Assembly: GCA_035403965.1 (NCBI GenBank)
Contig: DAONGE010000001.1
Span: 11,475-75,474, forward strand
Source of the DNA: Candidatus Omnitrophota bacterium
GTDB lineage: Bacteria > Omnitrophota > Gorgyraeia > Tantalellales > Tantalellaceae
Direction: 5' to 3'
Length of the DNA: 64,000 nt
Below the pieces are notes generated by a model that was not told the DNA's origin, made no database searches, and saw nothing but the letters and a program-made list of their open reading frames with translations. The position numbers and the translations under genes are program-made. Shown piece after piece: positions 18,998-62,208 of this stretch (positions are counted from its first letter, which is position 1; each line of letters opens with the position of its first letter).

Positions 18998-21900
18998 ATG
19001 CCTAATTATTTAAAAAAGATTATATCAATAGTAATAATCGTGACCTTTGTAGCGGATCCCAACATCGCATTGGCCGCTGATTCTGGCATATTCAACAAAC
19101 AGAATGATTCCAGCACGCTTTCCCCCACACTTAGAATGAAATCGATCGATGTGAACAAAGAAGAAAAAGCCTTGAATACAACCGGGATAGATGAAAAGGA
19201 TAATATATCTGAGGATTTCAGAGCGCAAAGCCGCTTTTTATATGTCGCCGGAGAGATCGGAAAAGCCATAGCGAAAAAAGAACAGTTAAAGTTGCCCATG
19301 GATGATATCCAACGGATCATCATCGAGAAGGTTCCAGACATAGATGCAACGGGATTCAATTACAAAAAAATAGGACTTAAAGAGGGAAGGTATAGTCTTG
19401 ATTATGTTGACAATGACAAGCCGTTGTTGACGCTAAATTATTATTTCGTAAAGGGCGATCTTGCCCAGGGTCAGATCAAAGTTGCCGATGTCAGCGAAAA
19501 AGGGTTGTTGGTCTTTGAATGCAATATGCCGGGCATGGATGGGATCGCGAGCATAAAAGAAAAAGAAACCAGCGAACCTAAAATACAAAACAGTGTACAT
19601 AAGCGTATTAGAATGTCCAAAGATGAAAAACGAGATGTAGGAGAAATAAACGCTCAAAATAATGGTATAGACAGAAAGGCGCTTCGATTTACTAACGTGT
19701 TGGAGAAACGGCTGAATAGGGTTTTCACCGCCGCGGCGGTCAGGCAAAAGACAGGAAGAAAGGTGGAGATCAAGATAACACCGGTTTTGAGGTACGGGAA
19801 CAACGAAGCGGCGGCTTGGACCCGCGGCTTCACAATGCGTGCAACACGTTCAGATATGACCATAATCCATGAGTATAGTATGGTTTTTGACAGGACAGAT
19901 CTTAAGGAATTTCTATTTACCGTGAGGCACGATATTTCCAGGATAGAGGGACTTAATGATATCGCGGATATTCCGGAGTGGGAAGATCTGATGTATGACC
20001 TTGCCCTTCAGCCCAGAACTATGGATGAAGCGACAGTAGTGAATACCGCGCAGATGGAAATAACGAAACGATATTATCGTTTCAATGATCCGGAAAATCT
20101 TTATGTCGAACATCCGGCGCCTGTTATCTTCTTTTCACCAGTAGTGAACTTACTAGATATATTCCCGATAACCGTGATGATGGATATAGATGGTAAGCCT
20201 TTTTATTTTCTGGAAAGAAATCTCGGGCTTGTTGGGCTTACAATGAATTCCGGGGTTCCTCACATGGTAAGGTTCACGCAGTTTGAATATGCCGGGCGTA
20301 TCCGCAACGGTATTGAGATCGTCAGATTCACGGATAACTATGAACCGACAGCCTTTATTCTTAGAGGGTACATCGATCTGGAAAAGGGTTTTCAGATAAT
20401 CCATTATACACGGGAAGAAAACGAGATGAACAAGATACGGCTTCCCGGTATGCGTAACGAGGTATTGGAAATCGAAGCTATGTGTAATCTTTGGCCGAGA
20501 TTATCGGAAGAAATTACTCGTGATAAAACAGAAACAATGACGTCGGAAGAGAATAAGAAAAATAAAAAACCGGAACTTGCTCCGCTATACCGTGATATGG
20601 GCGTTATTCTCGGAACTTTGGTCGGCGCGGGACTTCTTTACGGGCAATTCGGTATCACGGGTATCCCTGTGGCGGCGGCTATTTCGGTGCTGACCTTGCT
20701 GCCGGGCTGGCTTATACATGAAATAGGGCATCTGATCGGCAGGCCATTCGGGAAAGAGGCGGAGATCAGGGCCGGGCCGATAGCGAGTTTGTTGCTTTTC
20801 AGCGCCGCTATCATACCGGCCATAGTGCTGCATTCGTACGGTTTTCCAAGCGTTATAATAGATGTCGCCGCGGCGAATTATTTTGTGCATATATTTGCCG
20901 ACGGCCAGTCGCTGCTCAAGCGATCCGGATTTTTGCATCCGGAAGATGTGAATGATGCAAATATCCCGGAGCGTGAAGATCAGGATGAACTAACTCCCGG
21001 CCAGAAATTAATTAATAAAATCAAGGAAGTTTCCGCAAGAGGATTGGCCGATTATGGTGTCATAAAAACACCGTTGATACCGCTTGATAAAATAAGCGGG
21101 ATGATGAGTTTCAATAGAAAAGAAAGAAAAGTGTTCTTAAAAGACGAGGCCTGGCAAACCGGAGGCTCGTTTAAAGCCCGCGGGGTATCAGTCGAGGTTG
21201 ACGATGCGATCAGGTCAAGGATAGAAGCCATTATAGCGGAGGAACCGCATCTTCAGGAAATAAAAGCTTCTGGGAAAACACCATTAAAAGAGAGACCGTT
21301 CTATATAGTTACGCAAACCACCGGTAATCACGGTATCGCGCTTATAAACGCTGTTAACGTGGCGATAAAAATATATTCCGAGAAATATCCGGAGTATAAG
21401 GAAGCGATAACTAATTTCGAGCCGGTCATATTTACTATAAAAAATCTTCCGGAGATAAAGTTTAAATTGATGACCGAAGCGGTGGAGATATACAGAAAAA
21501 CCAGCGGAAAAACAGAAAGCGAAACAATCAGGAATTATTACGAAAATTACAACAAAGCGCTGACTGCCAGAGAGGAATTTTTACGAGAGCATTCTGAAGA
21601 CGCGGTGTATATGGAACACGGCGGTCTTGCCATAATGGCCGGACACGCGACGGCCGGGATAGAAATAGACGAGCAGCTTACCGAGGAATTCGGGATAGGG
21701 AAAGACAAAAACGTAGTTGTGATAGTGCCTGTCGGTGCCGGCGGTCCTATAGGGATAGGTGCGGGTGTAAAACTTAATGGACGGAATGTGACCTTTATCG
21801 CGGTCGGGACTAAGGAGTATGACGCGATCATTCGAAGCATAGATTCCAGCAAGGTGGAATGGAACAAAGCGAATCCTTCTCCCACGGCGTTTATAAAAGG

Positions 21901-24900
21901 TAAGCCTATCATATATCCTGACGGGATTGCGGTTGATAAATCCGAAAAAAGCGCCGTAGACGTTGCACGTGATTTTGTTGACGAGAAATTTGTGACAAGC
22001 GATAAGAAAGGACTTAACAGGGCCGCGCCGCTTTTATATTCAGACCTTGAAAGTTATTACATGGAACGCGCGAAACCTCTTGCTGTCGGAGGAACGACAG
22101 CCGCTACGCTTGAGGCCCTGATCGAAAATAAAGGTAATGAGATTATGAAAAACGCCGATGTCATAGTGCTTTTCGGCACAGAGGGTAACGTAGACCCTGA
22201 TATAACGGAATACATTTATGGCCTGAATTCCGGCAACGAACCGTTAAAATTCGGCGAAAACGGAGAGCTGACCACTCAGCTGATCGGCAAACTTAAGGGA
22301 TATGACATAGCGGCCAGAGAGAACATACATGGACAGCGGTATAGTCAGGCTGAAGTTTTTATTGAAAAACAGCGATGGGTGCTTAAGAATGCGGCTGCGT
22401 GGGATAAAGAGGCTGTTGATCAGGCCCGGTATGTAATAGGGAATTATCTGAGTTTAGTGAATAGCTATTGTCGGGCCATGAAGAATGAAAACGATCAGAA
22501 AATAAAAACAGACATGATCGAGAGTTGCGAAAAGTTACTGAAAAACACAACCAGCCTGTATGAAAAATTTAAGCGAGAAGGGAAGATCCTCGGGTGTGGT
22601 GCGTACATTATCAGCGCGTACACGAACCTTGCGGGACAATATGGGAATGAGGATTTTTATAAGATCGAAAGACTATTGGATACGGCTAAGGAAATATTGG
22701 ATCAGGGTGCCGCAGACCGATATGGGGATATTACCACAGAAGGGGCGAGAGAGGTCATTCCGCCTATAACAAAACAAGCGGAGTTCATTATAACCGGGTA
22801 TATGAAATTGGCCGGTAAGATGAAGTGGCAGGATGACTTTGCCAATGCTTTGAGAATAGCTGAAAAAGCCAGGGATCTGTTGGCCAAATATAGAGACGCG
22901 CCCGGTGTGGAAAATGTGTTTTACGATGTTGGTATTTTTTATGTTAATTTGGCAGCTATATACAGGGATCGTTTTCGGGATATTGTTTTTTCAATGGCGA
23001 TGCTGATGAAGGCAGAGTCTATCCGCATAGAGTTTGGAGAATATAACAGCGCCCAAAAAGGGCATAGTACAGGGAATAGGGCATTATCAAGTTCGATTAT
23101 AAATGGTTATACGTTAACTGCCAGGAAGTTTTCAGAGAAGAAACAATATGCGGCCGCGGTACATGCCATAAGGAGATCCGGGGTCCTTACCTGGCGTTAC
23201 GGGACCGATGAATATAAAGAAAATCGTGATATCGTTGGTTTGATGGTTCTTGCCAATGCAGTATCTAATATTTTGCGAAGAGATGTTCTTGAGAACAAAC
23301 AGGAGTATCTAAATAACTTGAACGACGCTAAGCGTATTTTATGGATATCCGCGCAAGTGCTAAGGAAATACGACACGCCAAGCGTAAAAGCGCAGGTGGA
23401 ATATTTGGTAAGCGCGTATACGAATCTGTCCTATTCATATAAAACGGTTGGAGAATATGGTTTATGTGGAGATGTTTTGGAGAGGGTCGAGCGTATATTG
23501 CGGTCGTATCCGGATCAGCAAAGCGTGAGAGATCAAGCCGAGTTTGTTGTGAGTAGTTTCGCGAACCTGGCAGGGGCATACAGAGAGGCCGGGGATCTTG
23601 AAACGGCCGAAAAATTTCTAAATAGAGCATATAAAGTATTTTTAAATTTTATCGGAGAGTACAGCGTACAGAGGCAAAAAAAGTTCATGATAGACGATCA
23701 TATGCGTCTCAGCCAGGCTTTTGAAGTGAAAGGCGATCGACAGAAAGCAGTGGAATTGTCCGACAAAGCGTTAAAAATAGCGCAAACGAAGTTAGATGTG
23801 GAGAAACATAAGCGTCTGCGCGCGATGGGACCGATACCTTTCGAGATGTTCATCGTTTTTCTGGCATACGGGAGCATTTACAAACATCGTAAGGAGATTA
23901 TTGATTTTATCCATTCAAAAGGTTATTTGCGCCTGGAAAAAGCCGTACGTTTGTTAATACCGGACTTATCCAAATACCGCGTGACTGAATGGTTGCATGA
24001 AAGTCTTCAGAATATATCCATAGGATTAACGATCAAACCGGTCGCGATAGATCAGGGCATGTGGGATCTTGAGCAAAGAATACCTGAAAGAGGCCAAAGC
24101 GAAGAAGCGAAATTCATAGAGATGTTTGGAGGGCATTCCGAGGAAGTTCTTGAATTTATAACCGAGGAACGAAATTGTTCCGAGATATCCGGGTTTTCTA
24201 TAAAGAACGTAAAACATTTTGAAACGGCCGAAAATGTTTCGCGGAATGTATACCGGATCGAGCTGGTATTGAAAGGCGGTCACAACCATGTGTTCTATGT
24301 TAGGGAATACAGATCGACTGACGGGGAATCCCAGATAGGCGAGCTTGATTGGATAACAGGGCCTATACGACGCATGACCGATAGGGTTGAAAAAGCCGCG
24401 GCGGCAGGAATGGTGGCGCCGTATGCTCGACTGTTTATCGATCGTGGAAGATGCCTATTCGTACAGGACGAGGCCCAGGGGATACCGGTAAAAGAATTTA
24501 TAAAAGACGAGGAAACCGCGCTATTGGCCGCCGAATCGATAGGTTATGCGCTTGGGCGTTTACATGGCTTAGGAATAGAACACGGTGATCTGGAAATAGA
24601 GAGAAAAGGAAGCCCGGAACATAATCATATTTTCATTCATGAAGAGAACGATGGGGTCACGGCGAATTTTATAGATTTTTATGAAAGGCCTTTTTCTTTT
24701 TGGAGAAGAGGCAAGGTTAAAATATTTGGCGAAGAAGATGACCTGCTCAATAAGCTTGAAAAATATGTGTTCGGAAAGATAGGCAGTGAAAATCGGGCGG
24801 AAAATGAAATCGCGGATGTATTTACCAAGGCCTACATAAAGGGCAATGTTTCCGTGGGGGAAAAATACAGGCCAAGTCTTGTCGCCAAGATAAAAATGGC

Positions 24901-38977: not shown

Positions 38978-39059
38978 TCTAATCCCGCATCGATGTATTA
39001 TTGCATTTTATGTTATGTCAAATCTCTGTTATTTGTGATTTCACGAATTTTTTATTATT

Positions 39060-39147: not shown

Positions 39148-39263
39148 GTTTAAATTGTTTGTGTATTTTTTTGATGCCACCGTCCGCGGGAACGCAAAAT
39201 AAAATTATAAAAATTGAACGAATTTGTCCCCAAAATGTGTCTATAAATATAAGGGGAATTAAT

Positions 39264-39788: not shown

Positions 39789-39811
39789 TGACGAATATGT
39801 CCTGATTTCCA

Positions 39812-55000: not shown

Positions 55001-58000
55001 TTCTCACGAGTGTCACGGAAACTGGTATCAAGTTGTTCAAAATGGTTGCCCCGGAAACTCCCAGAAGCATAGCCGAGTTTATGGAACTGACGGAAAGAGT
55101 TAAAAAGGCATTGGGTGGTTTGTCTGATGAAGAAAGAGAGATAGCGAAAGAATTGATGAACACGGGATCGGCTGAAGATGCTGCAATAAAAGGATTTGAC
55201 AGGAAAGAAATAGAAAAGGTAATGGAAAAACTCAGAGTAGCTTTTGCCGACATGAGAAATGGAACAAGAGGTTCCGCGCCCGCGGTTCTTCTGATAGGTG
55301 GTTCGACGTTGATGAAAGCAGGAGAAGCGCCTGATAAAGAAAAAAGCCTCGTAGGCATTGATCCGACTTGGGATAAAGAAAAGACAATAAAATATTTAGA
55401 ATCCCTGATTCAGAAAACGGAATTAGAAGAAAAAGACATAGAATTTCTAAAGACCTTAACGGAATTTTTACAATGTAAGGATAATAGCCTGATTAGTTTT
55501 ATAAATCAGAATGGACGACTGGACATAGCGGCGAATATTGATTCAATAAACGTTTTAAAATATTTGGTTATAAATTTTGACCCAACTGTTTTTGATGTGT
55601 CGCAGTCTGAAGAAATGTCAAGGCGTTATAAAGAAATAGCCCGACATATGTCTACTGGAGCGTATGAGCATCAGTTGTCACATTGCCAGAGGACTTTTGA
55701 GGTGCTAAAGGAGCTGTGGAGCAGTCTGGAGAAAAAGGGAATAAAAAACACAGAACTTGAAAATCTTGTTGCGGCGGGCAGAAATATCGAAGCAGATTTT
55801 ATGTTGCTTAGACATGCTCTTGGAAATTATGAATATTTCAAAGATGGGATCTTGTCCATATGGATCATAAATCTTGCAAGACGGGAGATTTATAGGATAT
55901 TCAAATTTAATCAGGAGGCTTTAGAATTTTTAAGGAAGTATTTGAACGAAGGAGAACAATACGATGATCGGGATGAGGGGGAGTGGGAAAAATACTTTAT
56001 AAGTTTTGCTGAATTTGGGCTGGGTGAAGCCGCAGGTTTTATTCTAGACATAGATCAGTGGAAGAAACAAGGGTTGGATTCTTATTTAGGGAAAAGTACT
56101 ATAGGAGATCTAGTTAGTTTATTTGAATCCGCTGTAATTAAAAAAGCCGGTCATGATTTTAAATTTTCATCCTATGAGGAAACGGATATCAATGAGCTTG
56201 ATACAGTTGGTATATCTATAACAGACCTGGAATATGTGGCAGAAAATCTTGCTGATAACTCTTGCGGGGCCAAGGACACATCGAGACCATTTAAGATAAA
56301 TTTAAAATTTTCAAATGAGATACGTAATAGACAAAAATATGTTCGCATTGAATTTACAGATACCGGAAAAGGTATGGCACCAGAAGTTTTAGCCAGCGTG
56401 AGATCGGGCGGAGGTTTTACGACAAAAGGTGCTTTTGGACATGGCAAGGGTATTCCTATAGTCTTTGAGATAATAAAGAATGGCGGAGGTTTTTTAGAGA
56501 TCGAATCTGAAGAAGGCAAAGGAACAACTTTTATAATAGGTATCCCGATAACAGTTTCATATGGGACTGTTTTAGGAGAGACAGGAGTAACCGGGACACT
56601 TCCCGCTTCAGATCCGGAAACGTCCCAAGGTGGAAAAACTGCTTCTGCGGTTATTTTTGCGGGTGGGTCGACATTAATCGGAAATATTTTTATCGCTCTT
56701 TACAGCTATTTGTATTTATCCGTTCAAAAAGACGCAATAGTGGATTTTCTTTATGAAAAAAGCCGGATGAAGAAATGGTATTCAGGTCTTGCCCGCCATT
56801 TAGCCCGCTTTTTTGATTTTATTCTTTTAGACATGACGCAATCCGCCGCCACAAGATACCTTGCCAAATCTTTGCTTATGGGCCCGGGGCTTACGATACG
56901 GCCGGTAGAACCAGATGTGGACAGGTCTGAGAGGGAAAACGGGGACAGGTCTGGGATTGATTCCGGGACAGGTCTGGGATCAGATTTGGAAACGTCCCCA
57001 TATGTACCCGGGGCTGTCCCCAAAGTGCCAAGCTTTATGTTAAGCGCGAGAGACATTTTTGAAAGTATTTCGCGGATGAGGGACGATATCACGGATGCCG
57101 CGATGATTGATGAGATCGGAGTAAAAGAAGGCGACAGGATTTTATGCGTTGGGATAGGGTCGTATTGTAATTGTCCGGTTGCCGGGGCGATAAAAGGCGC
57201 CAATGTGGATATTGTTCAGCCGTCTTCATATGAAGGGGTCGAACAGACCCGCGAGCTAATAAAAGCGATAGATATTCTGAGACAGAAGATAATTTCCAAA
57301 TATGGAACGGATCTTATCGGGGAGAGGATCGATACCGAAAGTTATCGAGGCATGGCCGAAGAAGTTGATCTCCATAATAGGACTTATACTGTCGCGATAC
57401 TCCCAAATATTCTGGATGACCCGGCGCGGTCTAAAAATAAGCAAAGCGCAAAATTAAGGGACGTTATATTGAACTCTCTTAGTGACGAAGCCACTATCTT
57501 AATTTCCGTGTTAGGCGGACGGACGGACGAATACGCGTTCGCTTTTGCGGATTACGCCAGAGGTAAAGGATACAAAGTTGAAGTGGGAAGCAAATATACT
57601 TCGGATAATGTTTACAGGGTTCTAAAAGTGACAAGGGTAAATGCGGAATTAGAAAAAGAGAAGGGACCGGAAGTAAGCCTTGAGCGCGAGAGAAAACTAA
57701 AACGCATAACGCGGTTGGTCGAAAATTATTTCGACGATTGGGCAAAGAGTGAATGGCGCGAAATTTTAGATATATTGAATTATTTGGGAGAAAAGGGATC
57801 CATAAGCCCGTCTCAGAAAGAGGAGATATTCGAGAAAATAAAAGTGTTGGTCGAGAATATTTTCAGCCCAAACAAGATTCCGAGAGAATTCTTTGATTAT
57901 GAGGGAGAGGAAAACGTTGCTAAACTTATTGATTTCATGATGAACATAAAAGATGAACATCTCGGAAGCTTAAGATCCTTAAGGGAAGACCTTGTAAAGA

Positions 58001-61000
58001 TCATTCCTCACGATCATATGCTTGTTTCGTCGCTGGACGGATTGATTGAGAAAGTTGAAAAATTATTTAATGAAGTCGAATCCGTGCGTAAGGAAATATT
58101 CTTATCAGGTATGCCTTCCGAAGGGGGACCGTACAATAAAGCCCCGGCTATTTTTTCCCTGGGCGCATCGACCTTAGCGGGAAACATCTTTCTGGGAGTT
58201 TTTACGTACTTATATTTATCCGCCCAGAAACAGGCGATAGTGGATTTTCTGTATGAAAAAAGCCGGATGAAAAAATGGTATTCAGGTCTTGCCCGCCATT
58301 TAGCCCGCTTTTTCGATTCGATTCTTTTAGACATGACACGATACGCTGCCACAAGATACCTTGCGAAATCCCTGCTTAACGGTCCGGCGGATATGATACG
58401 GCCGGTTGACGGGCCGTTATTCCCCGGGTTCCCTGATGGGGAAAAAGGCAGAAATTATCAAGGGATAGATGTAATTGCCCGGTTACAGATCCTTGCCGGA
58501 GGCAATGATAGTGAGGGGCTGGTAAGAGAGTTGAATAAAATCGGGCCTGACAGGGTGCGTAATCTTATGGGTTCCGGGGATACGTCAAGATCCACCGGTT
58601 TTATGATACTTATGGCGCAGATATGTGAGATCTTGGTGAAGAGTGGCGATTTGACTCGGCTGAATAATGAAGTACGGCGTATCGTTGAACAAAAAGAACG
58701 CGACTTCGCAAGGGACGCAATAGTTGTTTCATTAGAAAGAGCGTCGGAAAAGCAATCGGCTACTTATTCGGATCCCCGCCGATCGGCGCGGCGTGACGGC
58801 AAAACCAGTGTGACGCGGCGAACTCAAGGCGAAGGAGAGAGCTCTTCACCGCCTGCGGCACCTCGCGATGACTTGGGATCGGGAGCGTCCCCGGGTGATG
58901 CGGAACGGGAAGAGTTTTTGAGAAAAAATAATTCCGCGTTTTCCCAGATGATGGATGTATTAGATGATTATCACCATGAACGGAGCATAACCAGATATTT
59001 TCTTGCAGGTAGCATGTCCCGCGGGACTTTTGGTGTTCCGCCGAAAGATATGGATATAGCGGTTTCCTTCAGGCTATCCCGTCAGGCGGAAGAAGTGGAT
59101 GTATATCAACGTCTTTACGAAGAAATCGAAACTATCTCGAAAGAGACAGGTATAAGTTTTCATATTATTCCTTTACCGATAGGCCATGTGTTCAATATAA
59201 CGGACAATTCGATAGAACCTACCGGGGAAGTCCTGGGGGGGAGTTATCGTCCGGCTATGGCATCATTGATAAACCCCGTGGATTATAGACTTATTGAAAT
59301 AAGCCGTGCGTACAGAGAAACGGCCGGAGCCGATTTCTTTGCGCAATTATTCTTAAAAATTAAAACATATAATGAAAATGTCCCTCGCGATGACGATCGT
59401 GCCACCCAAGGCGCGGCTGAGAAAAATATCAATGGTTCAGAAACGCTGTTCCCCGGCGCCGGCCCCGGAGCGGCGAGCCTTAACGGCCCGGAATTCACAC
59501 GTAAAATAAAAGTCAGGGCGCCGCGATTTTTGGCGGGGTGGACCAGAGGCCGCGTGGAAAAGGCCATAACTACAGGCCTTACCTATGATGAAGCCGTAGC
59601 GTGGCGTGAATGGAAGTTACGAACGAATAAACGTTTTCCATCGGGGTTCTGGCAATCGAGACAGACAGTTATTAATTACACGCTGGCTACGTTGGATAGT
59701 ATCTCGGGGTTTAAACAGGCAAGGGAGAGCGGCGATATCTCCACAACGGCCAAATTGTTGCGTTCGGAATTAAAAAGATACAATCTTGGTTATAAGAAAT
59801 TTTTCGTAGAGCGTGGGCGGATGAACGCTTTACTGGATAATAATTACGATGGGATACTTTCCGAACCTAATAGGGTATCATCGCTTATCGGACTTGCCGT
59901 GCCGGGACTGATAGATATGAAAAATAAGGACGCGATAAGTCCTGTCGAAGTAGAACCTAATTATTGGGAAAATGAGGAAAACGCCAGATATCATATCCTT
60001 GCGGCTTTGGATAACGGTGTGCCGGGTTTTGCCGATGCCCGCGCCAGACACGATATTAAAGCTATGGCGGGGTTATATCGTGAATATGTTATGGGATATG
60101 GATCAAAAACCGGAAAATATGATGACGGTCAGGTCGCGTTCTTTTGCGAAGTGGGAGAGCTTTTAGGGCTTATAAGCCATGAGAGAAAATATCTGGATAA
60201 AAAGGGAAGCCCGGCGGCTGTTTTACGTTTTGCCATACCGGAGCTTGTTGATCAGAACGATCCCGACGCCATAAGGTTGACTGACGTCGAAAGAAAAGTC
60301 GCGGTAGTGGGTTCTGACAGGAAATATGAAGAAAAATTGATGGAGTATATAATCAAACATTCGGTGGATGGTCGTAGCGGGAAAGAATTATACGAGAATA
60401 ATCCCATGTTAAGTTCCCAGCTTAGTTATGAAGAACGCGCGGATATTTACCGGGCTATACTTTCACGGGATACGCTGAAGCCGTGGGAATGGGCGGCTTG
60501 CGCGTATATATGGTGTTGTGAAGCCAGGGACAGGTTCTTGGCTTCAGACATACTGGAAAACCCGTTAACTATCGAAGAATGTCATGGCGATAAAAAAGTG
60601 AACAAGGTGATACATGATCTTATATTCAACCATAAATTTCGGATAGACTCCGGGAATACTGAGACCCTATTTGGCGTGTTATTCTCCTCGTCTTTAAGAG
60701 TGCATAATATGCCCGAAGGGGTTGGGCCGGACGTCGTATACGCCAATATTCAAAGGGCAAGGGGTTTGGTCCAGGGAGAGAGCGATCATATCATGGATTT
60801 GCGGGCGTATGCCGGATCACATCTATGGTTCACGTCCCCGGCTATGTTGGATCTTTTTTATGGAGCGGATGGGATAGGTGGAGAGGCATATGCGAACGCC
60901 AGGACTATTATCCCCAGAGAGATATTCACCCCTGAGCTTATGGCGCGCTTCAATGAGATATACGCATCGTGTATTTATCGGATCGAAATGCTGAACGGTA

Positions 61001-62208
61001 GCGATCTTAAGGTATTTGATAGATGTGTTGAAAACTACAAATTATCTGGCCGATCTGTTCCGGCTGAACGTAAAAATGTAGCGCAGAAAGCAGATTTGAT
61101 CCCTTCGTCCGCGGATGTGATCCAGGACTCGTCGCCCCAGCTTCCGATCGCACGTAGCTCTAATGAAAAACAAGATTTTGAAAGGACCATCGTATTCAAA
61201 AATCAGCTGGGTCTGCATGTCAGGCCATCGGTTGCGATACTCAATACATCCAAATATATATCAGACCGCTTAAATATAAAGATCAGTCTTAAAAAAGTTA
61301 AAACAGGGGTTGAGGCCCGCCCATTAGGACAAATGGCGCTGTTGGAGCTTGAGCTGTATGATGGGGATGAAGTCATGTTGCGGCTTGAAGGGGGTAACTC
61401 CAGAATGTATAAACAAGTGCTTTATATTATGGAAAAACTTTTAAGGGATGAAGATGCCCTCCAGCATCCGTCAATAGTAGCAGCCGAATATTTTTCTCTG
61501 ATAGATGTTATCGCCGGAGATGTTGTGTACGGGGATGAACAAGGTAAGGATGAAAAAAAGAAAAAAGAAGAGGCGGTAAAAGACATATTCGCCCAAGAGA
61601 AAGAATATGCCGAGCGGGCTTTAGGAGAGGTTAAATACGCGCAGGCCATCGAGTCCCTGAAAATAGCGTATATCGCCGTGGAGACCGAGTGGATAGAAAA
61701 AAGTATCGGTACGCATGAACAGTCGCAGGATATAAATAAACTGATCATAAGGATAAAACATCTTTGCAAAGAGAAAAAGATAGAATTCATTCAAGGCGAC
61801 GCTTGGGAAGTGGCGGGACGAGTGGAAGCCATCAAAAAGTCCTCGCCGAGCGCGCGCGGTATAGTGCTTGCGGAAAAAGGCGCTGTGGACGCGGTCGCGG
61901 CCGCGCTTGAGGCTATGGGGCTACCGAATGATCAAAATACCGTTCTGGCCCAGGTCAAACCTGGAAAATTCGATAGCGGTGCGTATGTAAGGCTTGTAAG
62001 GATGCTGATGGCGAGCCTTGTTCTTTTAAGGGACGATCTGACCGGCCTTTCCGAAGAAGATCGCGAAGAGTTCAGGACAAAATACTCCGACGTGGGGCTG
62101 AACTTTTTGGCGGGTAACCGTGTTATATTCAACTTACCGGCCGCAAAGGCCATGGACTATGACGATCTGCGTCATTTATACGGTGATGCGATCGAAGTAT
62201 TCGCGTAA
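40045..62208 (+). CDS. giant multi-domain mosaic protein 2 (7,387 aa): signal peptide, 3 orphan HATPase_c, HD, HAD, GT2, >=4 GNAT, 2 MutS-domain-V-like ATPases, 3 MNT nucleotidyltransferases, Rossmann module, HPr-like domain
   Basis: Single uninterrupted 22,164-nt ORF. Likely start is ATG 40063 (MKRRRPFFSLVSIAVIFSMLMSDISFAQDA signal peptide). TATAAT-like boxes at 40030 and 40054. Seven full and two degenerate copies of separator motif B. Modules listed as separate features. Confidence 0.8.
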   Translation: MLLQYNMKRRRPFFSLVSIAVIFSMLMSDISFAQDAIRDTLAPSLATKPICKVEKNDDGTFDITTNNDVIEYWENKTEDDLDAKSPFASAFREKWAIRDIGMVVAQALGLNIPSGTVKELIKKHFKNRNAENQLILEGYEIDGIKEKYCGEEISEYFVPVNRNRELAFYLKFYLNGEKKAAPFCQTKTEKGEMKNVYMDVVTIDEVQTFFEEKNSPDVRVGKRDMFFVPDFAPGVALRTAISRDLEYRCGMIKKFIEINENIGGENINAEKYKEMRDFLITGIGHILKAAENENKNDEMWEQDIQLELSEFNKNMTNKSLEGLCQGMEKKVSDRLKASIRALSILYSGLAGENHSRSADIKELTDVIKTIEMPSSFVDVVLNVDAKARNVNVNEGEMFRILENIFRNALAAQLEKAANIRDDVERAAYRAVINIDAVVDSGEVVIKIKDNGPGLPEDAEKAFREGKPFTTHTTGGGRGMRAAKYLVEKNGGKIDVLSERGEGTTFTVRLPLGEDPRVRARLLHDFANLVQGIEGETYICSEITKDPEIFESVEKSVKGCLTLRDPNLDIKKTLENIYRGMNEEVMRSMTESIGKYLADKNISTNDREELRQSFESLITLIKAVKRIAGFYSGLDTGKRLVRLNEILLSYPKRKSGQKLTTDLNAGDIEIFTDECALDQVATNLYRNALQASDANRENHISVGTSLSGDGKYVYFSIEDTGIGIPPENLRKIFEAGFTTKEDGHGFGLDIVKDLVETRLGGTIKIESEVGKGTKFMVCLPLDQEQEKPGRFSRKDVVIDLSNKADSEERLQALRAMIEERVGSRQNKIVTGQEAVREADWLSGRLWEIANCSDEWFKKSMPMHAVDVVNITKQSDNNASPELLIASMFHDADRAFDGYFVHLKDMPPYDSPLYSEYLKPILHPRMADEVIRPLLDLLGIEKNLADKVSILIRNHETGINGNSLDKDNPLVTEELITDSEKLKNADAIAVLTPFMLMVRFNEADRRGKMEEFYFEVKQKYSRCSDQGRGIIDGLIEEGKKEYENDPTWSEVYAIFLRVKDETREEVKFDIDKDIELYAFDYEETLAKTKSKMSDEMLAEIIKRLEAGRRFAVITGVNIYFLHKYFGQYIPKEIRKKYRKQIIFMGELGTEVGRYDENGELYLDEKNSVSLRPEIKTGIAGEVYKALEKHGLANISGISTRFKKDTDPAEYPAGKSIEIGLEKYGTAVVRFWDKTLRGRMKDIVEDLRDVLDKMGLKVAASNSAIDISPMDKGEALDKLRAIIKEESGKDIAYENILVGGDSQNDYAMLAKPGVKAVYFGNSKKAELPEEVAKNVYMSETKGPEGLVGLFSVGIFNNVREDRKTQENLSFDAVRSWEWERLMYEFREMFAQHRVRDFNRNLLRYRQAVEMYNAEYDQGVYEDMLHKGKGLRDDDKEMETALEQKYLEDLSKLLSCALRRDDSDNVAEYLAALIKSEKASLLSDEAKLFIRSFLTIYSMSPERGKKVGVVISMFNEQKRMGKEDFVRKKIEQMEELFAVNPGLDWEMVFVEDGEERSNGESKSSGEMALEILRSEYQNLLDSGKVKVLFLNKKIKDNIRGRKGSGIIYGLRKALDDGADYLVYTDADISSHLGQTGILLDPLVKGDAQVTIASRRINGDIVFNRSRGEKIKSMVYNIFVRLILGLKITDSQTGFKAFTREALEKSLPLKVFPPEGSDGKEFEGNFVYNFSFDTNLLCRIDDVFSDSEETVIAEVPIVWIGSREESTVRLKDVLIMLRGLFEQWRIRNRTVQIVSSDEVSQKGNYKLLAILKGDEIGKLEYSPDINDANTVWLGWIGVENKRHSVGELLMRRFFAECRAMKKNKVKLWCDKNNTSAVVFYEEISERLNIPMEINDEISNAFHLITYTIGDVYKLSGLNSGAATSEVQKVEDQGDNVFNRTGNGLIFIGGATLAGNIFLGVFAYLYLSAQKQAIVDFLYEKSRVKKWYAKPCHYLSRFFDMVLLDVARCIAILDRKETVSVKLDSAVSDEHKMTLMAYSGKEKAGTLKFSQSSHAPNTMSLEWLNVTYKKQGKGVGTALMTEFFKICYKLKKKRIILCCKKDNTGAIAFYYEMARRFNARIDKKDITINDEYYLIEYTFDDSNRAMPAFICLGGAMTFWSDVFIAGLVYLWFSAQKQAIADFLYEKSRMKKWYSSIARHLARFFDIVLLDMTQYAATRYLAKSLLMGPGLTIKPIDNGTVGALSISGTPDDDIVYVPEKYREKLAEKDIYPQRYRHVFMGMIDRLKLNDNEINELKSTLATVAGNMRIYKDPMGRIDMIIDVLKENNIDANGGSELKKQYLIVVYSIARHGKKGKVALDGVIRSFNGAGIKYQDMTEELKIQYLTAVYEIAMKGEKGKEALDGVIKSFKGERIVYKELTEELKKKYLIAVYKIAMKGEEGEKALGGVIESFKEEGIVYKELETEELKKTYLIAVYEIARKGKEGKDALDGVIGSFKGEGIVYKELTKDLKKQYLTAVYNIAMKGEGNKKTKEDGEEETVLDGVIKSFKKEGGIVYKELETEELKKQYLIAIYEIARKGQYAVENVGTIIDLLRGEGIEYKTMRRDSEKKRYLRSVYVQALKKGKEYDDEFILYVMKGFWELYSAEREPAVFESIAASGKKWREVVDAGTPRSIAKSTEWKERVKTVLNTLSDREREIAEALMETGSAEDAAIKGFDRKEIEKVMEKLRVAFADMKNKPTSSASAVLLMGGSTLAGNIFLGVFAYLYLSAQKQAIVDFLYEKSRMKKWYAGVARHLARFFDFILLDMTRYAATRYLAKSLLMGPGLTIKKTGSDGDRSGIDSGTDLRGETGTGLGSDLETSRDVVFGLGEVRLASLDDAWVIVQLKRLISEMPYGRDYRSIIYDMRERRSNDRIFVFKDNSGEVVGFIEGRFFLNAKSCYIANLAVREDMQKRGIGRILFNTFLDEMLDLGITSASVAARNDATAKFALERGLKCEEYYKGSDIQGYYVGDINKGNKVGQYFSKSPAFIFAGGSALAVNIFSGVFTYLYLSAQKQAIVDFLYEKSRMKKWYAGVARHLARFFDSILLDMTRYAATRYLAQSLLMSPGLTIRQVGSDGDRSEREIGDRSGIDSGTGLRGKPGTGLRSDLETSRESVNCGSGFLDYVKADNLESVFSYMGGLKSASNIGIDRLMSRLRSPFANINGILKEYAVQDDLAGSPEALKTLLEKIKELDEITKKAMEGVSPHEIRVNAQNAFDEQTEKYKRILYPDTGELPILLNEIQAILSKFNNEHVSELKGEIGGVLEKYDEVFGEESGIYTPISGVMHMEWWQKVAPHLLRGQENTIWKVRESFGNVAASAILAELKLAAGYKHAKFTDNDNVFNMKNATHPTMRFKSGFTPVSFKVSKSKKVTIISGLNSGGKSVTVKAAGIIALMVQAGMPVPADVEMDKMLFGGFKKAEVKDEDVSTGQGSNMLAELDETKKLMNTVKPNEFIIIDDDIFGGSSEPTVVASCFNAFMEKLGASGAVVVGITHHLDALRALKKEHPDDFNFLCVKTRPGKDGEEESEYELQEGIADSSQGLIEAIRMKWPASKLAIKYFNKLREWKNEPAVVCNNMPALKPAPLRQRGYFCSSVERDFLQLTDFSGKLRNTAVSIMGEIAGDVSGDFVEDIYANPETANSSEWREAIELLRTNPDVLDKFTSLLKENYRRWPQNIKFEERIHRYINPDSDKMTREFLRLIAFCRTSGITMLEKSAGRINSFLYGDFKSEIVKWVKACEEMIKLTEKEVGKENVKFRLGVDFIEMVNGMNRIIEKEDEFNELMTGLLFEYQFEEGSDLNKIKNLFVQSLKENHGSGYLFMQARTINNMMEEKNTGRKFIEKLQTNGLNARFLSIDKGLITRKDDRSQIMVQFCRDMSAMCTLRAMVDVDENWPFAKKGTEGEIRIKGGWHTSLEEDPNRTPNNVDISAYGKKGSLSIYTGFNTGGKSTLAKMIAQIVTHAKIGWPVPAEYASIGDFSDIQVVSELLTDIKEEQRQRNGKDEIGGALDRALHQSSMIIQNATPKSLIILDEPFSGSTEPEVAEALTAALAQSLVDRGATVILITHLLDTIPVLEGEVAGTQVFRAKTFEKDGALYPRFSFEPGIAVSSHGFEVARKIDWPGYSRALEYFNVLNKEEMQRERSPRDRSGAARAIFQEPRDSKYDGMKGREIKSAEKDRRKQLKEAEKKRLSSGEGNKNAPAILYFGASTLELNIFTGIFSYTGAVQHAEKVSHIDFRDDYGESLRRLWNFGPKGVPTEESVLRRLVVNLAYEMIVEQIRAFVKTKYPGADIDKLGVNVMLFGSSAKGLSIETSDIDFGLFIDDTELGSGIKVDPGYKSALVKIAVSALNEVIDKNGFNVKRFSVQLKRVNARANDVIIASHMLSREFGHRIFRDLANIFYINFGPIEIMRKKALQIVMNSANPEKTWENVCKWWSGYAKVIGNKHELRVSLDEIVEESLLISLPDLKTMCSIYNIEYRLPAVSVQETEKGDISITYPGKGLKVPPSDKAPAVLLMGGSTLVGNIFLGVFAYLYLSAQKDSIVDFLYEKSRMKKWYAGVARHLARFFDSILLDMTQSAATRYLANSLLMGPGLTIKPIDNEPVEAISISGKPDDGKDIVYVPEKYREKLAERDIYPQRYRQVFKGMIDRLKLNDNEINELKSTLATVAGTMCIYKDPMGRIDMIIDVLKENNIDENGGSELKKKYLIAVYMIAKKGKEGKEALDVVIGSFNGAGIKYQDMTEELKKQYLIAVYEIAMKGKEALDGVIKSFRGERIVYKELTEELKKQYLIAVYMIARKGKEGKDALDGVIELFKREGIVYKELTEELKKQYLIALYAIARKGKEGKDALDGVIRLFKEEGIEYSELTEDLKKQYLIVVYEIAMKGRYAVENVGKIIELLRGEGIEYKNMQRDAEKKNYLRAVYVQALKKGKEYDDEFILYISKYFWELSGHERKPEVLTSVTETGIKLFKMVAPETPRSIAEFMELTERVKKALGGLSDEEREIAKELMNTGSAEDAAIKGFDRKEIEKVMEKLRVAFADMRNGTRGSAPAVLLIGGSTLMKAGEAPDKEKSLVGIDPTWDKEKTIKYLESLIQKTELEEKDIEFLKTLTEFLQCKDNSLISFINQNGRLDIAANIDSINVLKYLVINFDPTVFDVSQSEEMSRRYKEIARHMSTGAYEHQLSHCQRTFEVLKELWSSLEKKGIKNTELENLVAAGRNIEADFMLLRHALGNYEYFKDGILSIWIINLARREIYRIFKFNQEALEFLRKYLNEGEQYDDRDEGEWEKYFISFAEFGLGEAAGFILDIDQWKKQGLDSYLGKSTIGDLVSLFESAVIKKAGHDFKFSSYEETDINELDTVGISITDLEYVAENLADNSCGAKDTSRPFKINLKFSNEIRNRQKYVRIEFTDTGKGMAPEVLASVRSGGGFTTKGAFGHGKGIPIVFEIIKNGGGFLEIESEEGKGTTFIIGIPITVSYGTVLGETGVTGTLPASDPETSQGGKTASAVIFAGGSTLIGNIFIALYSYLYLSVQKDAIVDFLYEKSRMKKWYSGLARHLARFFDFILLDMTQSAATRYLAKSLLMGPGLTIRPVEPDVDRSERENGDRSGIDSGTGLGSDLETSPYVPGAVPKVPSFMLSARDIFESISRMRDDITDAAMIDEIGVKEGDRILCVGIGSYCNCPVAGAIKGANVDIVQPSSYEGVEQTRELIKAIDILRQKIISKYGTDLIGERIDTESYRGMAEEVDLHNRTYTVAILPNILDDPARSKNKQSAKLRDVILNSLSDEATILISVLGGRTDEYAFAFADYARGKGYKVEVGSKYTSDNVYRVLKVTRVNAELEKEKGPEVSLERERKLKRITRLVENYFDDWAKSEWREILDILNYLGEKGSISPSQKEEIFEKIKVLVENIFSPNKIPREFFDYEGEENVAKLIDFMMNIKDEHLGSLRSLREDLVKIIPHDHMLVSSLDGLIEKVEKLFNEVESVRKEIFLSGMPSEGGPYNKAPAIFSLGASTLAGNIFLGVFTYLYLSAQKQAIVDFLYEKSRMKKWYSGLARHLARFFDSILLDMTRYAATRYLAKSLLNGPADMIRPVDGPLFPGFPDGEKGRNYQGIDVIARLQILAGGNDSEGLVRELNKIGPDRVRNLMGSGDTSRSTGFMILMAQICEILVKSGDLTRLNNEVRRIVEQKERDFARDAIVVSLERASEKQSATYSDPRRSARRDGKTSVTRRTQGEGESSSPPAAPRDDLGSGASPGDAEREEFLRKNNSAFSQMMDVLDDYHHERSITRYFLAGSMSRGTFGVPPKDMDIAVSFRLSRQAEEVDVYQRLYEEIETISKETGISFHIIPLPIGHVFNITDNSIEPTGEVLGGSYRPAMASLINPVDYRLIEISRAYRETAGADFFAQLFLKIKTYNENVPRDDDRATQGAAEKNINGSETLFPGAGPGAASLNGPEFTRKIKVRAPRFLAGWTRGRVEKAITTGLTYDEAVAWREWKLRTNKRFPSGFWQSRQTVINYTLATLDSISGFKQARESGDISTTAKLLRSELKRYNLGYKKFFVERGRMNALLDNNYDGILSEPNRVSSLIGLAVPGLIDMKNKDAISPVEVEPNYWENEENARYHILAALDNGVPGFADARARHDIKAMAGLYREYVMGYGSKTGKYDDGQVAFFCEVGELLGLISHERKYLDKKGSPAAVLRFAIPELVDQNDPDAIRLTDVERKVAVVGSDRKYEEKLMEYIIKHSVDGRSGKELYENNPMLSSQLSYEERADIYRAILSRDTLKPWEWAACAYIWCCEARDRFLASDILENPLTIEECHGDKKVNKVIHDLIFNHKFRIDSGNTETLFGVLFSSSLRVHNMPEGVGPDVVYANIQRARGLVQGESDHIMDLRAYAGSHLWFTSPAMLDLFYGADGIGGEAYANARTIIPREIFTPELMARFNEIYASCIYRIEMLNGSDLKVFDRCVENYKLSGRSVPAERKNVAQKADLIPSSADVIQDSSPQLPIARSSNEKQDFERTIVFKNQLGLHVRPSVAILNTSKYISDRLNIKISLKKVKTGVEARPLGQMALLELELYDGDEVMLRLEGGNSRMYKQVLYIMEKLLRDEDALQHPSIVAAEYFSLIDVIAGDVVYGDEQGKDEKKKKEEAVKDIFAQEKEYAERALGEVKYAQAIESLKIAYIAVETEWIEKSIGTHEQSQDINKLIIRIKHLCKEKKIEFIQGDAWEVAGRVEAIKKSSPSARGIVLAEKGAVDAVAAALEAMGLPNDQNTVLAQVKPGKFDSGAYVRLVRMLMASLVLLRDDLTGLSEEDREEFRTKYSDVGLNFLAGNRVIFNLPAAKAMDYDDLRHLYGDAIEVFA
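41190..41580 (+). other. HATPase_c (GHKL ATPase) module 1, without an adjacent HisKA
   Basis: N-box ENIFRNALAAQ, G1 DNGPGLP, G2 GGGRGMRAAKYLVEKNGGKIDVLSERGEGTTFTVRLPL. Confidence 0.6.
42040..42390 (+). other. HATPase_c module 2
   Basis: ATNLYRNALQAS, DTGIGIPPENLRKIFEAGFTTK, GHGFGLDIVKDLVETRLGGTIKIESEVGKGTKFMVCLPL. Confidence 0.6.
42560..43060 (+). other. HD-domain phosphohydrolase module
   Basis: H..(~40 aa)..LIASMFHDADRAF (HD dyad at ~42706) .. IRNHETG. Confidence 0.5.
43260..44070 (+). other. HAD-superfamily (Cof / IIB-like) hydrolase module
   Basis: Motif I AFDYEETL (DxExT variant), VITGVN, motif IV GGDSQNDYAML. Confidence 0.5.
44540..45330 (+). other. GT2 glycosyltransferase module (DPM1/GtrB-like)
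   Basis: VVISMFNEQ near the start, DxD YTDADIS, Q/RxxRW-like region ..GFKAFTRE. Confidence 0.5.
45430..45730 (+). other. GNAT module
   Basis: WIGVENKRHSVGELLMRRFFAECRA..AVVFYEE. Confidence 0.35.
45862..46070 (+). repeat. separator motif B1
   Basis: IGGATLAGNIFLGVFAYLYLSAQKQAIVDFLYEKSRVKKWYAKPCHYLSRFFDMVLLD. Confidence 0.7.
46100..46440 (+). other. GNAT module
   Basis: LEWLNVTYKKQGKGVGTALMTEFF..GAIAFYYEM. Confidence 0.45.
46475..46725 (+). repeat. separator motif B2
   Basis: LGGAMTFWSDVFIAGLVYLWFSAQKQAIADFLYEKSRMKKWYSSIARHLARFFDIVLLDMTQYAATRYLAKSLLMGPGLTIK. Confidence 0.7.
46990..47800 (+). repeat. tandem array 1 of ~126-nt (42-aa) repeats (ELKKQYLIAVYEIA[RM]KG.EGK.ALDGVI.SFK.EGIVYKELT), ~6 units
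   Basis: Units start at 47029, 47158, 47284, 47413, 47542, 47704 with 80-90% nt identity. Antisense track ORFs here repeat identical peptides, confirming the period. Confidence 0.75.
48259..48510 (+). repeat. separator motif B3
   Basis: MGGSTLAGNIFLGVFAYLYLSAQKQAIVDFLYEKSRMKKWYAGVARHLARFFDFILLDMTRYAATRYLAKSLLMGPGLTIK. Confidence 0.75.
48514..48610 (+). repeat. 23-bp minisatellite linker L1 (encodes GSDGDRSGIDSGTDLRGETGTGLGSDLETS)
   Basis: GGGGACAGGTCTGGGATTGATTCCGGGACAGATCTGAGAGGGGAAACGGGGACAGGTCTGGGATCAGATTTGGAAACGTCCC. Confidence 0.65.
48620..49010 (+). other. GNAT module
   Basis: VVGFIEGRFF..YIANLAVREDMQKRGIGRILFNTF carries the Q/RxxGxG/A CoA-binding motif. Confidence 0.5.
49105..49355 (+). 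repeat. separator motif B4
   Basis: AGGSALAVNIFSGVFTYLYLSAQKQAIVDFLYEKSRMKKWYAGVARHLARFFDSILLDMTRYAATRYLAQSLLMSPGLTIR. Confidence 0.75.
49362..49485 (+). repeat. minisatellite linker L2
   Basis: Encodes GSDGDRSEREIGDRSGIDSGTGLRGKPGTGLRSDLETS. Same 23-bp unit GGRACAGGTCTRRGAT. Confidence 0.65.
50230..50660 (+). other. MutS-domain-V-like ABC ATPase module 1
   Basis: Walker A ISGLNSGGKSV (50268-50294), Walker B FIIIDD, ITHHLD (H-loop/TH motif) at ~50615. Confidence 0.5.
51890..52500 (+). other. MutS-domain-V-like ABC ATPase module 2
   Basis: Walker A YTGFNTGGKST (51961-51987), Walker B + signature LIILDEPFSGST, ILITHLLD. Confidence 0.55.
52728..52900 (+). repeat. separator motif B5 (degenerate)
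   Basis: APAILYFGASTLELNIFTGIFSYTGAVQHAEKVSHIDFRDDYGESLRRLWNF. Confidence 0.45.
53030..53100 (+). other. MNT nucleotidyltransferase module
   Basis: MLFGSSAKGLSIETSDIDFGLFID. Confidence 0.5.
53660..53925 (+). repeat. separator motif B6
   Basis: MGGSTLVGNIFLGVFAYLYLSAQKDSIVDFLYEKSRMKKWYAGVARHLARFFDSILLDMTQSAATRYLANSLLMGPGLTIK. Confidence 0.75.
54226..54790 (+). repeat. tandem array 2 of ~120-126-nt repeats (same family as array 1), ~5 units
   Basis: Units start at 54226, 54355, 54475, 54595, 54715. Part of the second copy of the ~1.8-kb intragenic duplication (53.66-55.32 kb versus 46.47-48.30 kb). Confidence 0.75.
56290..56560 (+). other. HATPase_c module 3
   Basis: FTDTGKGMAPEVL, GGGFTTKGAFGHGKGIPIVFEIIKNGGGFLEIESEEGKGTTFIIGIP. 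Confidence 0.55.
56641..56900 (+). repeat. separator motif B8 (B7 is a truncated GGSTLMK stub at 55276-55320)
   Basis: AGGSTLIGNIFIALYSYLYLSVQKDAIVDFLYEKSRMKKWYSGLARHLARFFDFILLDMTQSAATRYLAKSLLMGPGLTIR. Confidence 0.75.
56905..57000 (+). repeat. minisatellite linker L3
   Basis: Encodes VDRSERENGDRSGIDSGTGLGSDLETSP. Contains GGGGACAGGTCTGGGATTGATTCCGGGACAGGTCTGGGATCAGATTTGGAAACGTCCCC. Confidence 0.65.
58141..58405 (+). repeat. separator motif B9
   Basis: LGASTLAGNIFLGVFTYLYLSAQKQAIVDFLYEKSRMKKWYSGLARHLARFFDSILLDMTRYAATRYLAKSLLNGPADMIRP. Confidence 0.75.
59000..59070 (+). other. MNT nucleotidyltransferase module
   Basis: FLAGSMSRGTFGVPPKDMDIAVSF. Confidence 0.45.
61185..61440 (+). other. HPr-like phosphocarrier domain near the C-terminus of giant protein 2
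   Basis: TIVFKNQLGLHVRPSVAILNTSKYIS..NIKISLKK..VEARPLGQMALLELELYDGDEVMLRLEGGNS parallels HPr: the GLHARPA active-site His loop, then ~70 aa with the regulatory region, ending in a ..G.D.. pattern. Confidence 0.5.

Follow-up and report, generated by a model that had tools for sequence, protein, structure and literature searches.

A 64,000-nucleotide (nt) stretch of DNA from Candidatus Omnitrophota bacterium (NCBI GenBank assembly GCA_035403965.1, contig DAONGE010000001.1, positions 11,475 to 75,474 of the forward strand) carries two adjacent giant genes, gene 1 and gene 2, and raises the question of whether such genes are real and complete, how their domains came together and what the encoded proteins might do. 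The whole stretch is called the window, and positions are counted from its first letter. The two genes are very probably complete tandem paralogues in an established class of giant multi-enzyme proteins, found in Omnitrophota, that carry signal-peptide and transmembrane (TM) signatures. The exact proteins of both genes and of the nearby CarB are GenBank entries of 'Candidatus Omnitrophota bacterium' metagenome-assembled genomes (MAGs); these labels, together with three publications on the phylum, substantiate the remark in the preliminary description of the locus (made from the sequence, before any database search) that giant genes occur in bacteria of the Omnitrophota type. The class has been published before, and GenBank lists both proteins under names that say little about them: that of gene 1 as HPS19381.1 ('pyridoxal-phosphate dependent enzyme') and that of gene 2 as HPS19383.1 ('GNAT family N-acetyltransferase').

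Both giant genes are considered to be genuine coding sequence. The open reading frames (ORFs) of gene 1 (19,980 nt; 6,659 codons) and gene 2 (22,164 nt; 7,387 codons) contain no internal stop, and the remaining five frames over the two spans contain 156–578 stops each. From the base composition of the window (GC content 43.4 %), stops are expected at 6.6 % of codons, and stop-free runs of these lengths would arise by chance with probabilities of about 1e-199 (gene 1) and 1e-220 (gene 2). Codon-position GC follows the order GC1 > GC3 > GC2 uniformly throughout both genes. The initial view that neither ORF is a chance product is thereby upheld.

Chimeric collapse of the assembly through 230-nt repeats, the main concern raised at the outset, was checked, and the same sequence was found in the assemblies of several samples. 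The small gene between the giants and carB were both found on JGI, NCBI, ENA and Logan contigs from different samples. Positions 29060–49788, a span that takes in several of the internal repeats and a 129-nt tandem array, were compared with six loci from other assemblies or samples; identity was 99.98–100 %, with no indels. The exact gene 1 protein (6,659 amino acids, aa) is present in NCBI, JGI and ENA, the exact gene 2 protein in two NCBI assemblies, and a 171-kb JGI contig carries a collinear copy of gene 2 with five residue differences. Because the internal repeats are only 60–92 % identical between copies at the DNA level, collapse by an assembler through them is unlikely.

Domains were called by Pfam and NCBIfam scans of overlapping protein chunks (coordinates in Table 1). 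About 8–10 distinct Pfam families were recognised in each giant protein, none of which dominates by copy number; a multi-enzyme mosaic is thus confirmed on the scale of about ten recognisable domains per protein, not on that of the 'dozens' of folds first reported. In gene 1 the pyridoxal-phosphate (PLP) domain matches the PALP profile (E 3.5e-21) with an intact lysine motif (GSFKARG), and the ATP-grasp domain (E 9e-9), the YbaK/tRNA_edit domain (E 8e-12), the GNAT domain and the TPR arrays of the original list were likewise recovered. The two Bud32/RIO/Kdo-like kinases, which are paralogous to each other by self-comparison, gave weak matches (E 1.2e-5 and 0.011; Kdo 0.045), as did the MNT nucleotidyltransferase (E 0.014). 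The S2P-like intramembrane protease of that list was not confirmed and is retained as a lead suggested by motifs: HEIGH (LLPGWLIHEIGHLIG) stands at the end of the hydrophobic segment at aa 555–577, and an N-x7-DG motif (ANYFVHIFADG) lies in the helix after the next, with the spacing kept and the prolines absent. This segment had no Pfam match at E values up to 5 and no match to a PDB sequence; a word-indexed homologue search was also empty, as it was for the joint alignment and the gene 2 tail described below, but this type of search missed the giant proteins themselves. No HExxH was found in gene 2 or in any relative.

For gene 2 the scans recovered three HATPase_c (GHKL) domains, all without HisKA, a HAD-type domain (profile matches including S6PP and Hydrolase_3), a GT2 glycosyltransferase, three to four GNATs, two MutS_V ATPases and an HPr-like domain (25 bits against a cutoff of 23), all as first listed, together with one clear and one weak MNT domain. 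The HD domain and the third MNT domain of the preliminary description had been called from motifs, and neither has a profile match. A weak sigma-70-like match was found (extracytoplasmic-function (ECF) model, E 0.0065, below the model cutoff). Pfam scans of both proteins found no domains of nonribosomal peptide or polyketide synthases (NRPS/PKS; condensation, adenylation, carrier, ketosynthase) and none of RTX or Rhs type, and likewise no SecA, C39 or S8 peptidase, glycoside hydrolase, NUDIX or dockerin domain. Two arrays of a helical-looking 43-aa (129-nt) repeat without a Pfam match are present in gene 2 (46897–47844 and 54172–54945), with unequal copy number in the two copies of a duplicated cassette described below.

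The cassettes are separated by a module of about 90 aa, here called the joint. Self-comparison identified four copies in gene 1 and eight in gene 2, one of the latter degenerate, as well as one truncated remnant in gene 2. The versions of the two genes are 19–34 % identical to each other, and their presence in both bears out the earlier proposal of a paralogous design with a common separator. A joint consists of an uncharged stretch of about 30 residues that is interrupted at its centre by a Gly/polar break (such as AVLLMGG-STLAGN-IFLGVFAYLYL), a conserved basic stretch of helical character, QKQAIVDFLYEKSR(MKKWY...), which in gene 1 takes the form KHRKAIIDFIHSKGYLRLEK, the sequence LLxD[LM][ST]xYxxTRYLAxSL and, at the border to the next cassette, a family-wide PGL[TS]I[KR]. 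A HMMER search of 1.84 billion representative proteins with a joint profile returned ten matches, among them the proteins of both giant genes. Of the remaining eight, six are named and come without exception from Omnitrophota MAGs, including Candidatus Tantalella remota. As there are only ten matches and every named one is from Omnitrophota, the joint is regarded as rare and lineage-specific. The joint-containing regions have no Pfam match, and the joint alignment found no relative among genome contigs.

The joint peptide is under purifying selection: between copies the median dN/dS is 0.25 with dS values of 0.45–0.9. Codon identity at conserved residues of the gene 2 copies is 60–80 %, against 37 % expected at saturation, and this together with the dS range indicates that the gene 2 copies are fairly young or have been homogenised. 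As the joint DNA lacks terminal inverted repeats and dN/dS is near 0.25, an interpretation of the joints as selfish in-frame elements of the RPE or MITE type was rejected.

Some further observations concern the joints and their surroundings. Three gene 2 joints are followed by low-complexity linkers rich in Gly, Ser and Asp (…SDGDRSGIDSGTGLR…; 48526–48611, 49396–49481 and 56894–57002), which are encoded by an 86-nt repeat with up to 94 % identity between copies. The sole free-standing homologue of the joint, P0017, is a 91-aa hydrophobic protein (locus L012, 3625–4175), the start of which overlaps the stop of a gene for a minimal MNT nucleotidyltransferase of 92 aa by 4 nt; the pair sits in an island of PhdYeFM/ParE toxin–antitoxin genes. 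The position held by P0017 beside an MNT gene is usually that of a HEPN partner. The degenerate joint of gene 2 (aa 4227–4279) likewise stands directly before an MNT domain. In another Omnitrophota protein (P0022/P0015, at least 5,023 aa), one joint copy occurs with three copies of an unrelated second repeated segment, which consists of a hydrophobic helix and, after it, a conserved helical part (…SPWAxLAILxLMLINDIIYExTH…YYQxLLxxHPWLAKV…KGLVY). Connectors composed of a hydrophobic helix and a helical module may thus be a general design represented by several sequence families.

Both giant proteins begin with a segment of Sec-type signal-peptide appearance (positive n-region, hydrophobic core, ends ALA/AD and SFA/QD), and signal-peptide-like N-termini are also found in their full-length relatives. 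The heads of gene 1 and gene 2 show no significant similarity (E 9); in both, the signal peptide is followed by TL[AS]P[ST]L. At the other end the tails (about 190 aa) are homologous to each other (25 % identity, E 7e-9) and to the tail of a complete relative of 3,229 aa (P0013/P0021), which is 37 % identical to that of gene 2. A model of the gene 2 tail (pLDDT 71, pTM 0.71) is a three-layer alpha/beta fold with generic flavodoxin/CheY/Rossmann-like matches. A scan of genome contigs with the three tails found only SLID01000046.1, from the Omnitrophota MAG that carries P0021/P0013, and the C-terminus of a further relative, P0014, was rejected as a tail (hhalign probability 3.7 %). Since the tail closes gene 1 and gene 2 opens with a signal peptide of its own, the two are complete tandem paralogues; the transposase island between them exists as first described, and it separates two genes, not the halves of one.

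The cassettes have probably been duplicated and exchanged at the joints. In gene 2, aa 2140–2745 are duplicated at aa 4537–5088, and each copy starts at a joint; within the joint that follows, the similarity breaks off abruptly some 12 residues into the hydrophobic helix, which leaves the truncated joint. The relative P0013 is itself a mosaic: it opens with a gene 2 head, continues with one joint of the gene 2 type, one of the gene 1 type and two gene 1-like modules (homologous to gene 1 aa 212–545, E 6e-53, and aa 4398–4700), and closes with a gene 2-type tail. In other joint-bearing relatives the cassettes include glycogen phosphorylase, a transglutaminase-like domain, a fructosamine-type kinase, GNATs and a weak Fic match.

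Giant ORFs of more than 20 kb are reported to be common in several classes of Omnitrophota and have been linked to attachment to host cells (Seymour et al. 2023, PMC10066038). Genes 1 and 2 are from the same phylum; gene 2 exceeds 20 kb and gene 1 falls 20 nt short of it, but the adhesin-type domains of that study (discoidin, laminin_G_3, dockerin) are absent from both. A likeness is also found in a recent preprint (Nielsen & Lui 2026, bioRxiv 10.64898/2026.06.07.730766), which describes a 'multi-enzyme' class 1 of giant proteins, many with signal peptide and TM helices, a Pfam module 1 of HATPase_c, GNAT, HAD, methyltransferase and HD, transposase genes as frequent neighbours, and secretion or pilus genes beside 13 of the 14 largest giants. 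Genes 1 and 2 likewise string many distinct enzymes along one chain and adjoin mobile-element genes. Gene 2 has PF02518 three times, PF00583 and HAD, and PF00583 occurs in both genes, whereas the PF08241 methyltransferase and HD profiles of module 1 were not found here. Gene 2 also fits the signal-peptide and TM class, with about one hydrophobic helix per 500–900 residues by Kyte–Doolittle analysis; at 6,659 and 7,387 aa, both proteins are smaller than those of the catalogue, which starts at 10,000 aa. The preliminary description had found no characterised system to match: its exclusion of NRPS/PKS, RTX and Rhs architectures stands, and its suggestion of an unprecedented architecture gives way to this class. 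A conserved joint, a common tail and joint-bounded exchange are not described in the parts of the preprint that were consulted; the joint and its rarity, the common tail, and the duplication and exchange of cassettes at the joints appear to be new, within the same limit.

Archaeovorins, whose type is a 39,678-aa protein of Velamenicoccus archaeovorus, have SecA DEAD-like and peptidase domains and an unannotated N-terminal region (West-Roberts et al. 2023, bioRxiv 10.1101/2023.11.21.568195). They too are membrane-associated Omnitrophota mega-proteins with mixed enzymes, but GT2 is the sole domain in common; the present proteins are much smaller, without a SecA_DEAD or preprotein-binding Pfam match even at E values up to 1 and without C39/S8 peptidase, glycoside hydrolase, NUDIX or methylase matches. 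Parallels in how the proteins may work lie outside the phylum. MARTX toxins are huge single secreted chains that carry several unrelated effector enzymes, with a cassette content that varies between strains. The giants resemble them in their mosaic multi-enzyme layout, but come from a different taxon, lack RTX/MARTX repeats and a cysteine protease domain (by Pfam), and have cassettes bounded by hydrophobic joints. Polyproteins of the flavivirus type contain internal signal and stop-transfer segments between functional units; here hydrophobic segments similarly recur between units, possibly with a membrane protease in the same chain, but these are cellular genes and the protease assignment is by motif.

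Giant genes make up a large share of the small genomes of Omnitrophota. The present locus is a small and tractable example, with complete genes, recurrence in several samples, clear head and tail ends, and recognisable joints. If the joints are exchange points or processing sites, they would help to explain how giant genes grow and diversify; if they are neither, genes 1 and 2 merely enlarge a class that is already known.

As to function, a surface-tethered arsenal of modifying enzymes acting in or on a host or prey cell is the reading tentatively favoured, with a little less than even confidence. The N-terminal signal peptide would export the chain, in gene 2 including the roughly 1,900 residues that precede the first joint (among them two GHKL domains, HAD and GT2), and the joints would tether it to the membrane many times. 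They would do so as hairpin or monotopic anchors rather than as alternating spans, with all cassettes on one side; this arrangement is preferred because cytoplasm-type enzymes (using ATP, acetyl-CoA or nucleoside triphosphates, NTP) flank every joint on both sides, and because the truncated joint, if a true span, would flip everything downstream of it. All the enzymes that can be recognised depend on ATP, NTP, acetyl-CoA, PLP, a sugar nucleotide or aminoacyl-tRNA. The exported enzymes would act where nucleotides and acyl-CoA exist, in or on the host or prey cell to which this host-dependent bacterium attaches, and it is these cofactor needs, together with the published link between giant proteins and host attachment, that speak for a host-directed arsenal. 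The account as a whole, which combines class membership, joint-bounded cassettes and an exported, membrane-tethered, host-directed enzyme array, is judged to stand about evenly between right and wrong.

Several findings weigh against it. The signal peptides were judged by eye from the sequence, and about half or more of each giant protein has no recognisable domain. Kyte–Doolittle values over 19 residues of the joint helix are 1.65–1.95 for the gene 2 copies and 1.0–1.5 for those of gene 1, and in an AlphaFold2 model the joint forms a single long helix, with low confidence (pLDDT 66). No secretion or pilus genes were found within the 64-kb window, the neighbours being housekeeping genes, and the locus differs from those in the preprint of Nielsen and Lui in having no secretion, pilus or glycoside hydrolase neighbours. 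Kyte–Doolittle scans gave a signal peptide and seven to eight candidate helices for gene 2 and a four-helix cluster for gene 1; several relatives have charged residues inside the hydrophobic segment of the joint, and the charges flanking the joints do not settle its orientation. Because hydrophobicity varies and the joint model is of low confidence, membrane insertion of the joint is not established.

The HPr, YbaK, MutS-like and weak sigma-70-like domains also tell against export, since they look cytoplasmic, and on their account a cytoplasm-facing, self-directed scaffold is nearly as likely as the host-directed arsenal, although taken singly it remains rather doubtful. In such a scaffold the chains would be membrane-tethered regulatory or metabolic enzyme arrays, with only the head outside or with the signal peptide serving as an anchor. 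The use of cytoplasmic cofactors or substrates by all recognised cassettes, the histidine motif of the HPr-like domain beside the sigma-70-like match in gene 2, and the housekeeping character of a neighbourhood free of secretion genes all accord with it. It is opposed by the canonical-looking signal peptides, which should export what follows (about 1,900 residues in gene 2), and by the same kind of N-terminus in the relatives.

That the chain is a polyprotein, from which the S2P-like segment, signal peptidase or another protease would release separate membrane-anchored enzymes by cleavage at or beside the joints, is unlikely. The joints are conserved far beyond the need of a plain anchor and end in PGL[TS]I[KR] at the cassette border, and their hydrophobic helix carries helix-breaking GG/N residues, such as S2P substrates typically need. 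In gene 1, HEIGH and N-x7-DG lie within hydrophobic helices, and the sole free-standing joint homologue is a protein of 91 aa. The candidate protease, however, has neither Pfam nor PDB-sequence nor homologue support, HExxH is absent from gene 2 and all relatives, and no C39, S8 or other peptidase profile matched. Polyprotein processing would be compatible with either the host-directed or the self-directed reading. A bolder combination, to which a slightly lower likelihood is assigned, would make the joint a previously undescribed 'cassette connector'. Its DNA would serve as a homology tract through which cassettes are duplicated, deleted and swapped in Omnitrophota, both inside one giant gene and from one such gene to another, and the joint would in this way be an inbuilt means of diversifying a host-directed enzyme arsenal by recombining its parts. 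Its peptide would be a membrane hairpin cut at PGLTI[KR], where a membrane protease, possibly the gene 1 S2P-like segment, would release or position single enzymes. If both roles held, the genes would be bacterial membrane polyproteins.

A membrane-woven chain, in which every joint is a true TM span and the cassettes alternate between cytoplasm and periplasm, is improbable. The gene 2 joints do exceed the classical Kyte–Doolittle threshold, and DeepTMHMM-based surveys of the class count such helices as transmembrane. Alternation, however, would place ATPases, MNT, HPr and the weak sigma-70-like match outside and GNAT and MNT inside, with no sorting by side; the values for the gene 1 joints are lower, the segment is charged in several relatives, and the truncated joint would invert the topology downstream. 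An anti-phage defence or other conflict system is very improbable: GHKL, MutS-like ATPase and MNT domains recur in defence systems, and the free-standing joint homologue adjoins an MNT gene in a toxin–antitoxin island, but the PADLOC protein models, applied to gene 2, gave no match in any of its ten chunks, and a signal peptide, the great size and membership of an Omnitrophota-specific class suggest another role. Internal repeats of 230–300 nt and the derivation of all sequence evidence from metagenome assemblies might suggest an artefact or a non-functional sequence (a chimera through the repeats, a decaying pseudogene or selfish in-frame repeat DNA), but this can be set aside with near certainty in view of the identical sequence in several samples, contig names that point to at least two assemblers, the divergence of the repeats, the absence of stops in 14,046 codons with catalytic motifs intact, and dN/dS values of about 0.25–0.3 for repeats without inverted termini.

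Table 1. Positions in the window of the giant genes, their domains and joints, and the transposase gene between them.
Feature	Position	Strand	Basis
Giant gene 1	18998..38977	+	ORF, exact protein look-up, codon-position GC
Sec-type signal peptide, MPNYLKK-IISIVIIVTFVA-DPNIALA/AD	18998..19078	+	read from sequence
Module of unrecognised fold, 35 % identical to P0013 aa 1712–2034	19631..20632	+	E 6e-53
Four-hydrophobic-helix cluster, aa 534–640, S2P/M50-like by motif only	20597..20917	+	motifs, hydrophobicity
Fold-type II PLP domain (threonine-dehydratase-like), GSFKARG	21050..22222	+	PALP profile
Gene 1 joint copy 1, hydrophobic part shortened	23816..24049	+	self-comparison
Bud32/RIO/Kdo-like kinase 1, paralogue of kinase 2	24386..24886	+	profiles, self-comparison
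Gene 1 joint copy 2	25127..25393	+	repeat comparison
Gene 1 joint copy 3	28751..29017	+	repeat comparison
ATP-grasp (ATPgrasp_ST/RimK-like)	29705..30442	+	profiles
TPR array	30710..31147	+	Pfam
Gene 1 joint copy 4	31313..31585	+	repeat comparison
GNAT acetyltransferase	31859..32137	+	Pfam
Bud32-like kinase 2 (weak)	33539..33994	+	profiles, self-comparison
YbaK/aminoacyl-tRNA editing domain	37241..37567	+	profiles
MNT-type nucleotidyltransferase (weak), G-x-G...DLDF	37856..38026	+	E 0.014
Gene 1 C-terminal tail, homologue of gene 2 tail	38384..38974	+	25 % identity, E 7e-9
IS200/RAYT-like Y1 transposase gene, 174 aa	39264..39788	+	between giant genes
Giant gene 2	40045..62208	+	ORF, exact protein look-up, codon-position GC
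Signal peptide KRRR-PFFSLVSIAVIFSMLM-SDISFA/QD and head, head 38 % identical to P0013 head	40045..40656	+	sequence comparison
Two HATPase_c (GHKL), N/G1/G2 boxes intact, no HisKA	41221..42405	+	profiles
HAD-IIB phosphatase domain	43270..44073	+	profiles
GT2 glycosyltransferase	44557..45144	+	profiles
Gene 2 joint copy 1	45844..46116	+	repeat comparison
GNAT (RimI-like)	46099..46368	+	profiles
Gene 2 joint copy 2, start of duplicated cassette	46456..46737	+	self-comparison
Tandem 43-aa (129-nt) repeats, helical by sequence	46897..47844	+	repeat comparison
Gene 2 joint copy 3	48244..48522	+	repeat comparison
GNAT	48706..48996	+	Pfam
Gene 2 joint copy 4	49090..49368	+	repeat comparison
Two MutS_V/MutS2-like ABC-type ATPases, Walker A GLNSGGKS and GFNTGGKS	50101..52569	+	profiles
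Degenerate joint copy 5, hydrophobic half only, aa 4227–4279	52723..52881	+	repeat comparison
MNT nucleotidyltransferase, GSSAKG...DIDF	52954..53112	+	profiles, E 2.3e-5
Gene 2 joint copy 6, start of second copy of duplicated cassette	53653..53931	+	self-comparison
Truncated joint 'APAVLLIGGSTL', duplication breakpoint	55267..55308	+	end of cassette homology
Third HATPase_c	56185..56559	+	profiles
Gene 2 joint copy 7	56635..56913	+	repeat comparison
Gene 2 joint copy 8	58135..58413	+	repeat comparison
Second MNT nucleotidyltransferase (weak)	58984..59178	+	E 0.0065
HPr-like domain, histidine motif GLHVRPS	61180..61398	+	profile, motif
Gene 2 C-terminal tail, flavodoxin/CheY-like model, 37 % identical to P0013 tail	61594..62205	+	comparison, model

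Upstream of gene 1 the window contains genes for a methyltransferase, MgtE, a MetY-like and a CysK-like protein, a hybrid histidine kinase of 1,777 aa, CarB, a photolyase, an LPG_synthase_C protein and a CxxCxxCC protein, all of an ordinary kind; no tRNA genes or Rfam matches were found in the 64 kb. The LPG_synthase_C gene (MprF C-terminal-like, stand-alone, 17265–18167, minus strand) lies near gene 1, with the CxxCxxCC gene between them. The substrate of the LPG_synthase_C family is aminoacyl-tRNA, and the YbaK-type domain of gene 1 is an aminoacyl-tRNA deacylase; their proximity is possibly a coincidence.

In the island between the giant genes a GC-rich hairpin occurs in three copies (at about 39125, 39567 and 39820). 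The coding sequence of the RAYT/IS200-like gene itself contains GC-rich palindromes, GGGGTTTCCCCGCCC and GGGCGCGGAGACCGCGCCC (39491–39592), and about 100 nt of its middle part are duplicated upstream of the gene at 39050–39150; on the downstream side, at about 39820, the second hairpin recurs in a third copy.

A third ORF (62382–64000, plus strand) begins 174 nt past gene 2 and runs past the end of the window with at least 539 codons. It had no Pfam match, was not significantly similar to either giant gene or to any of their relatives, and as a query against metagenome contigs gave no match; its N-terminus, MKKFKWAISCFVNVVFLFNTVIFDTSAAP, is signal-peptide-like.

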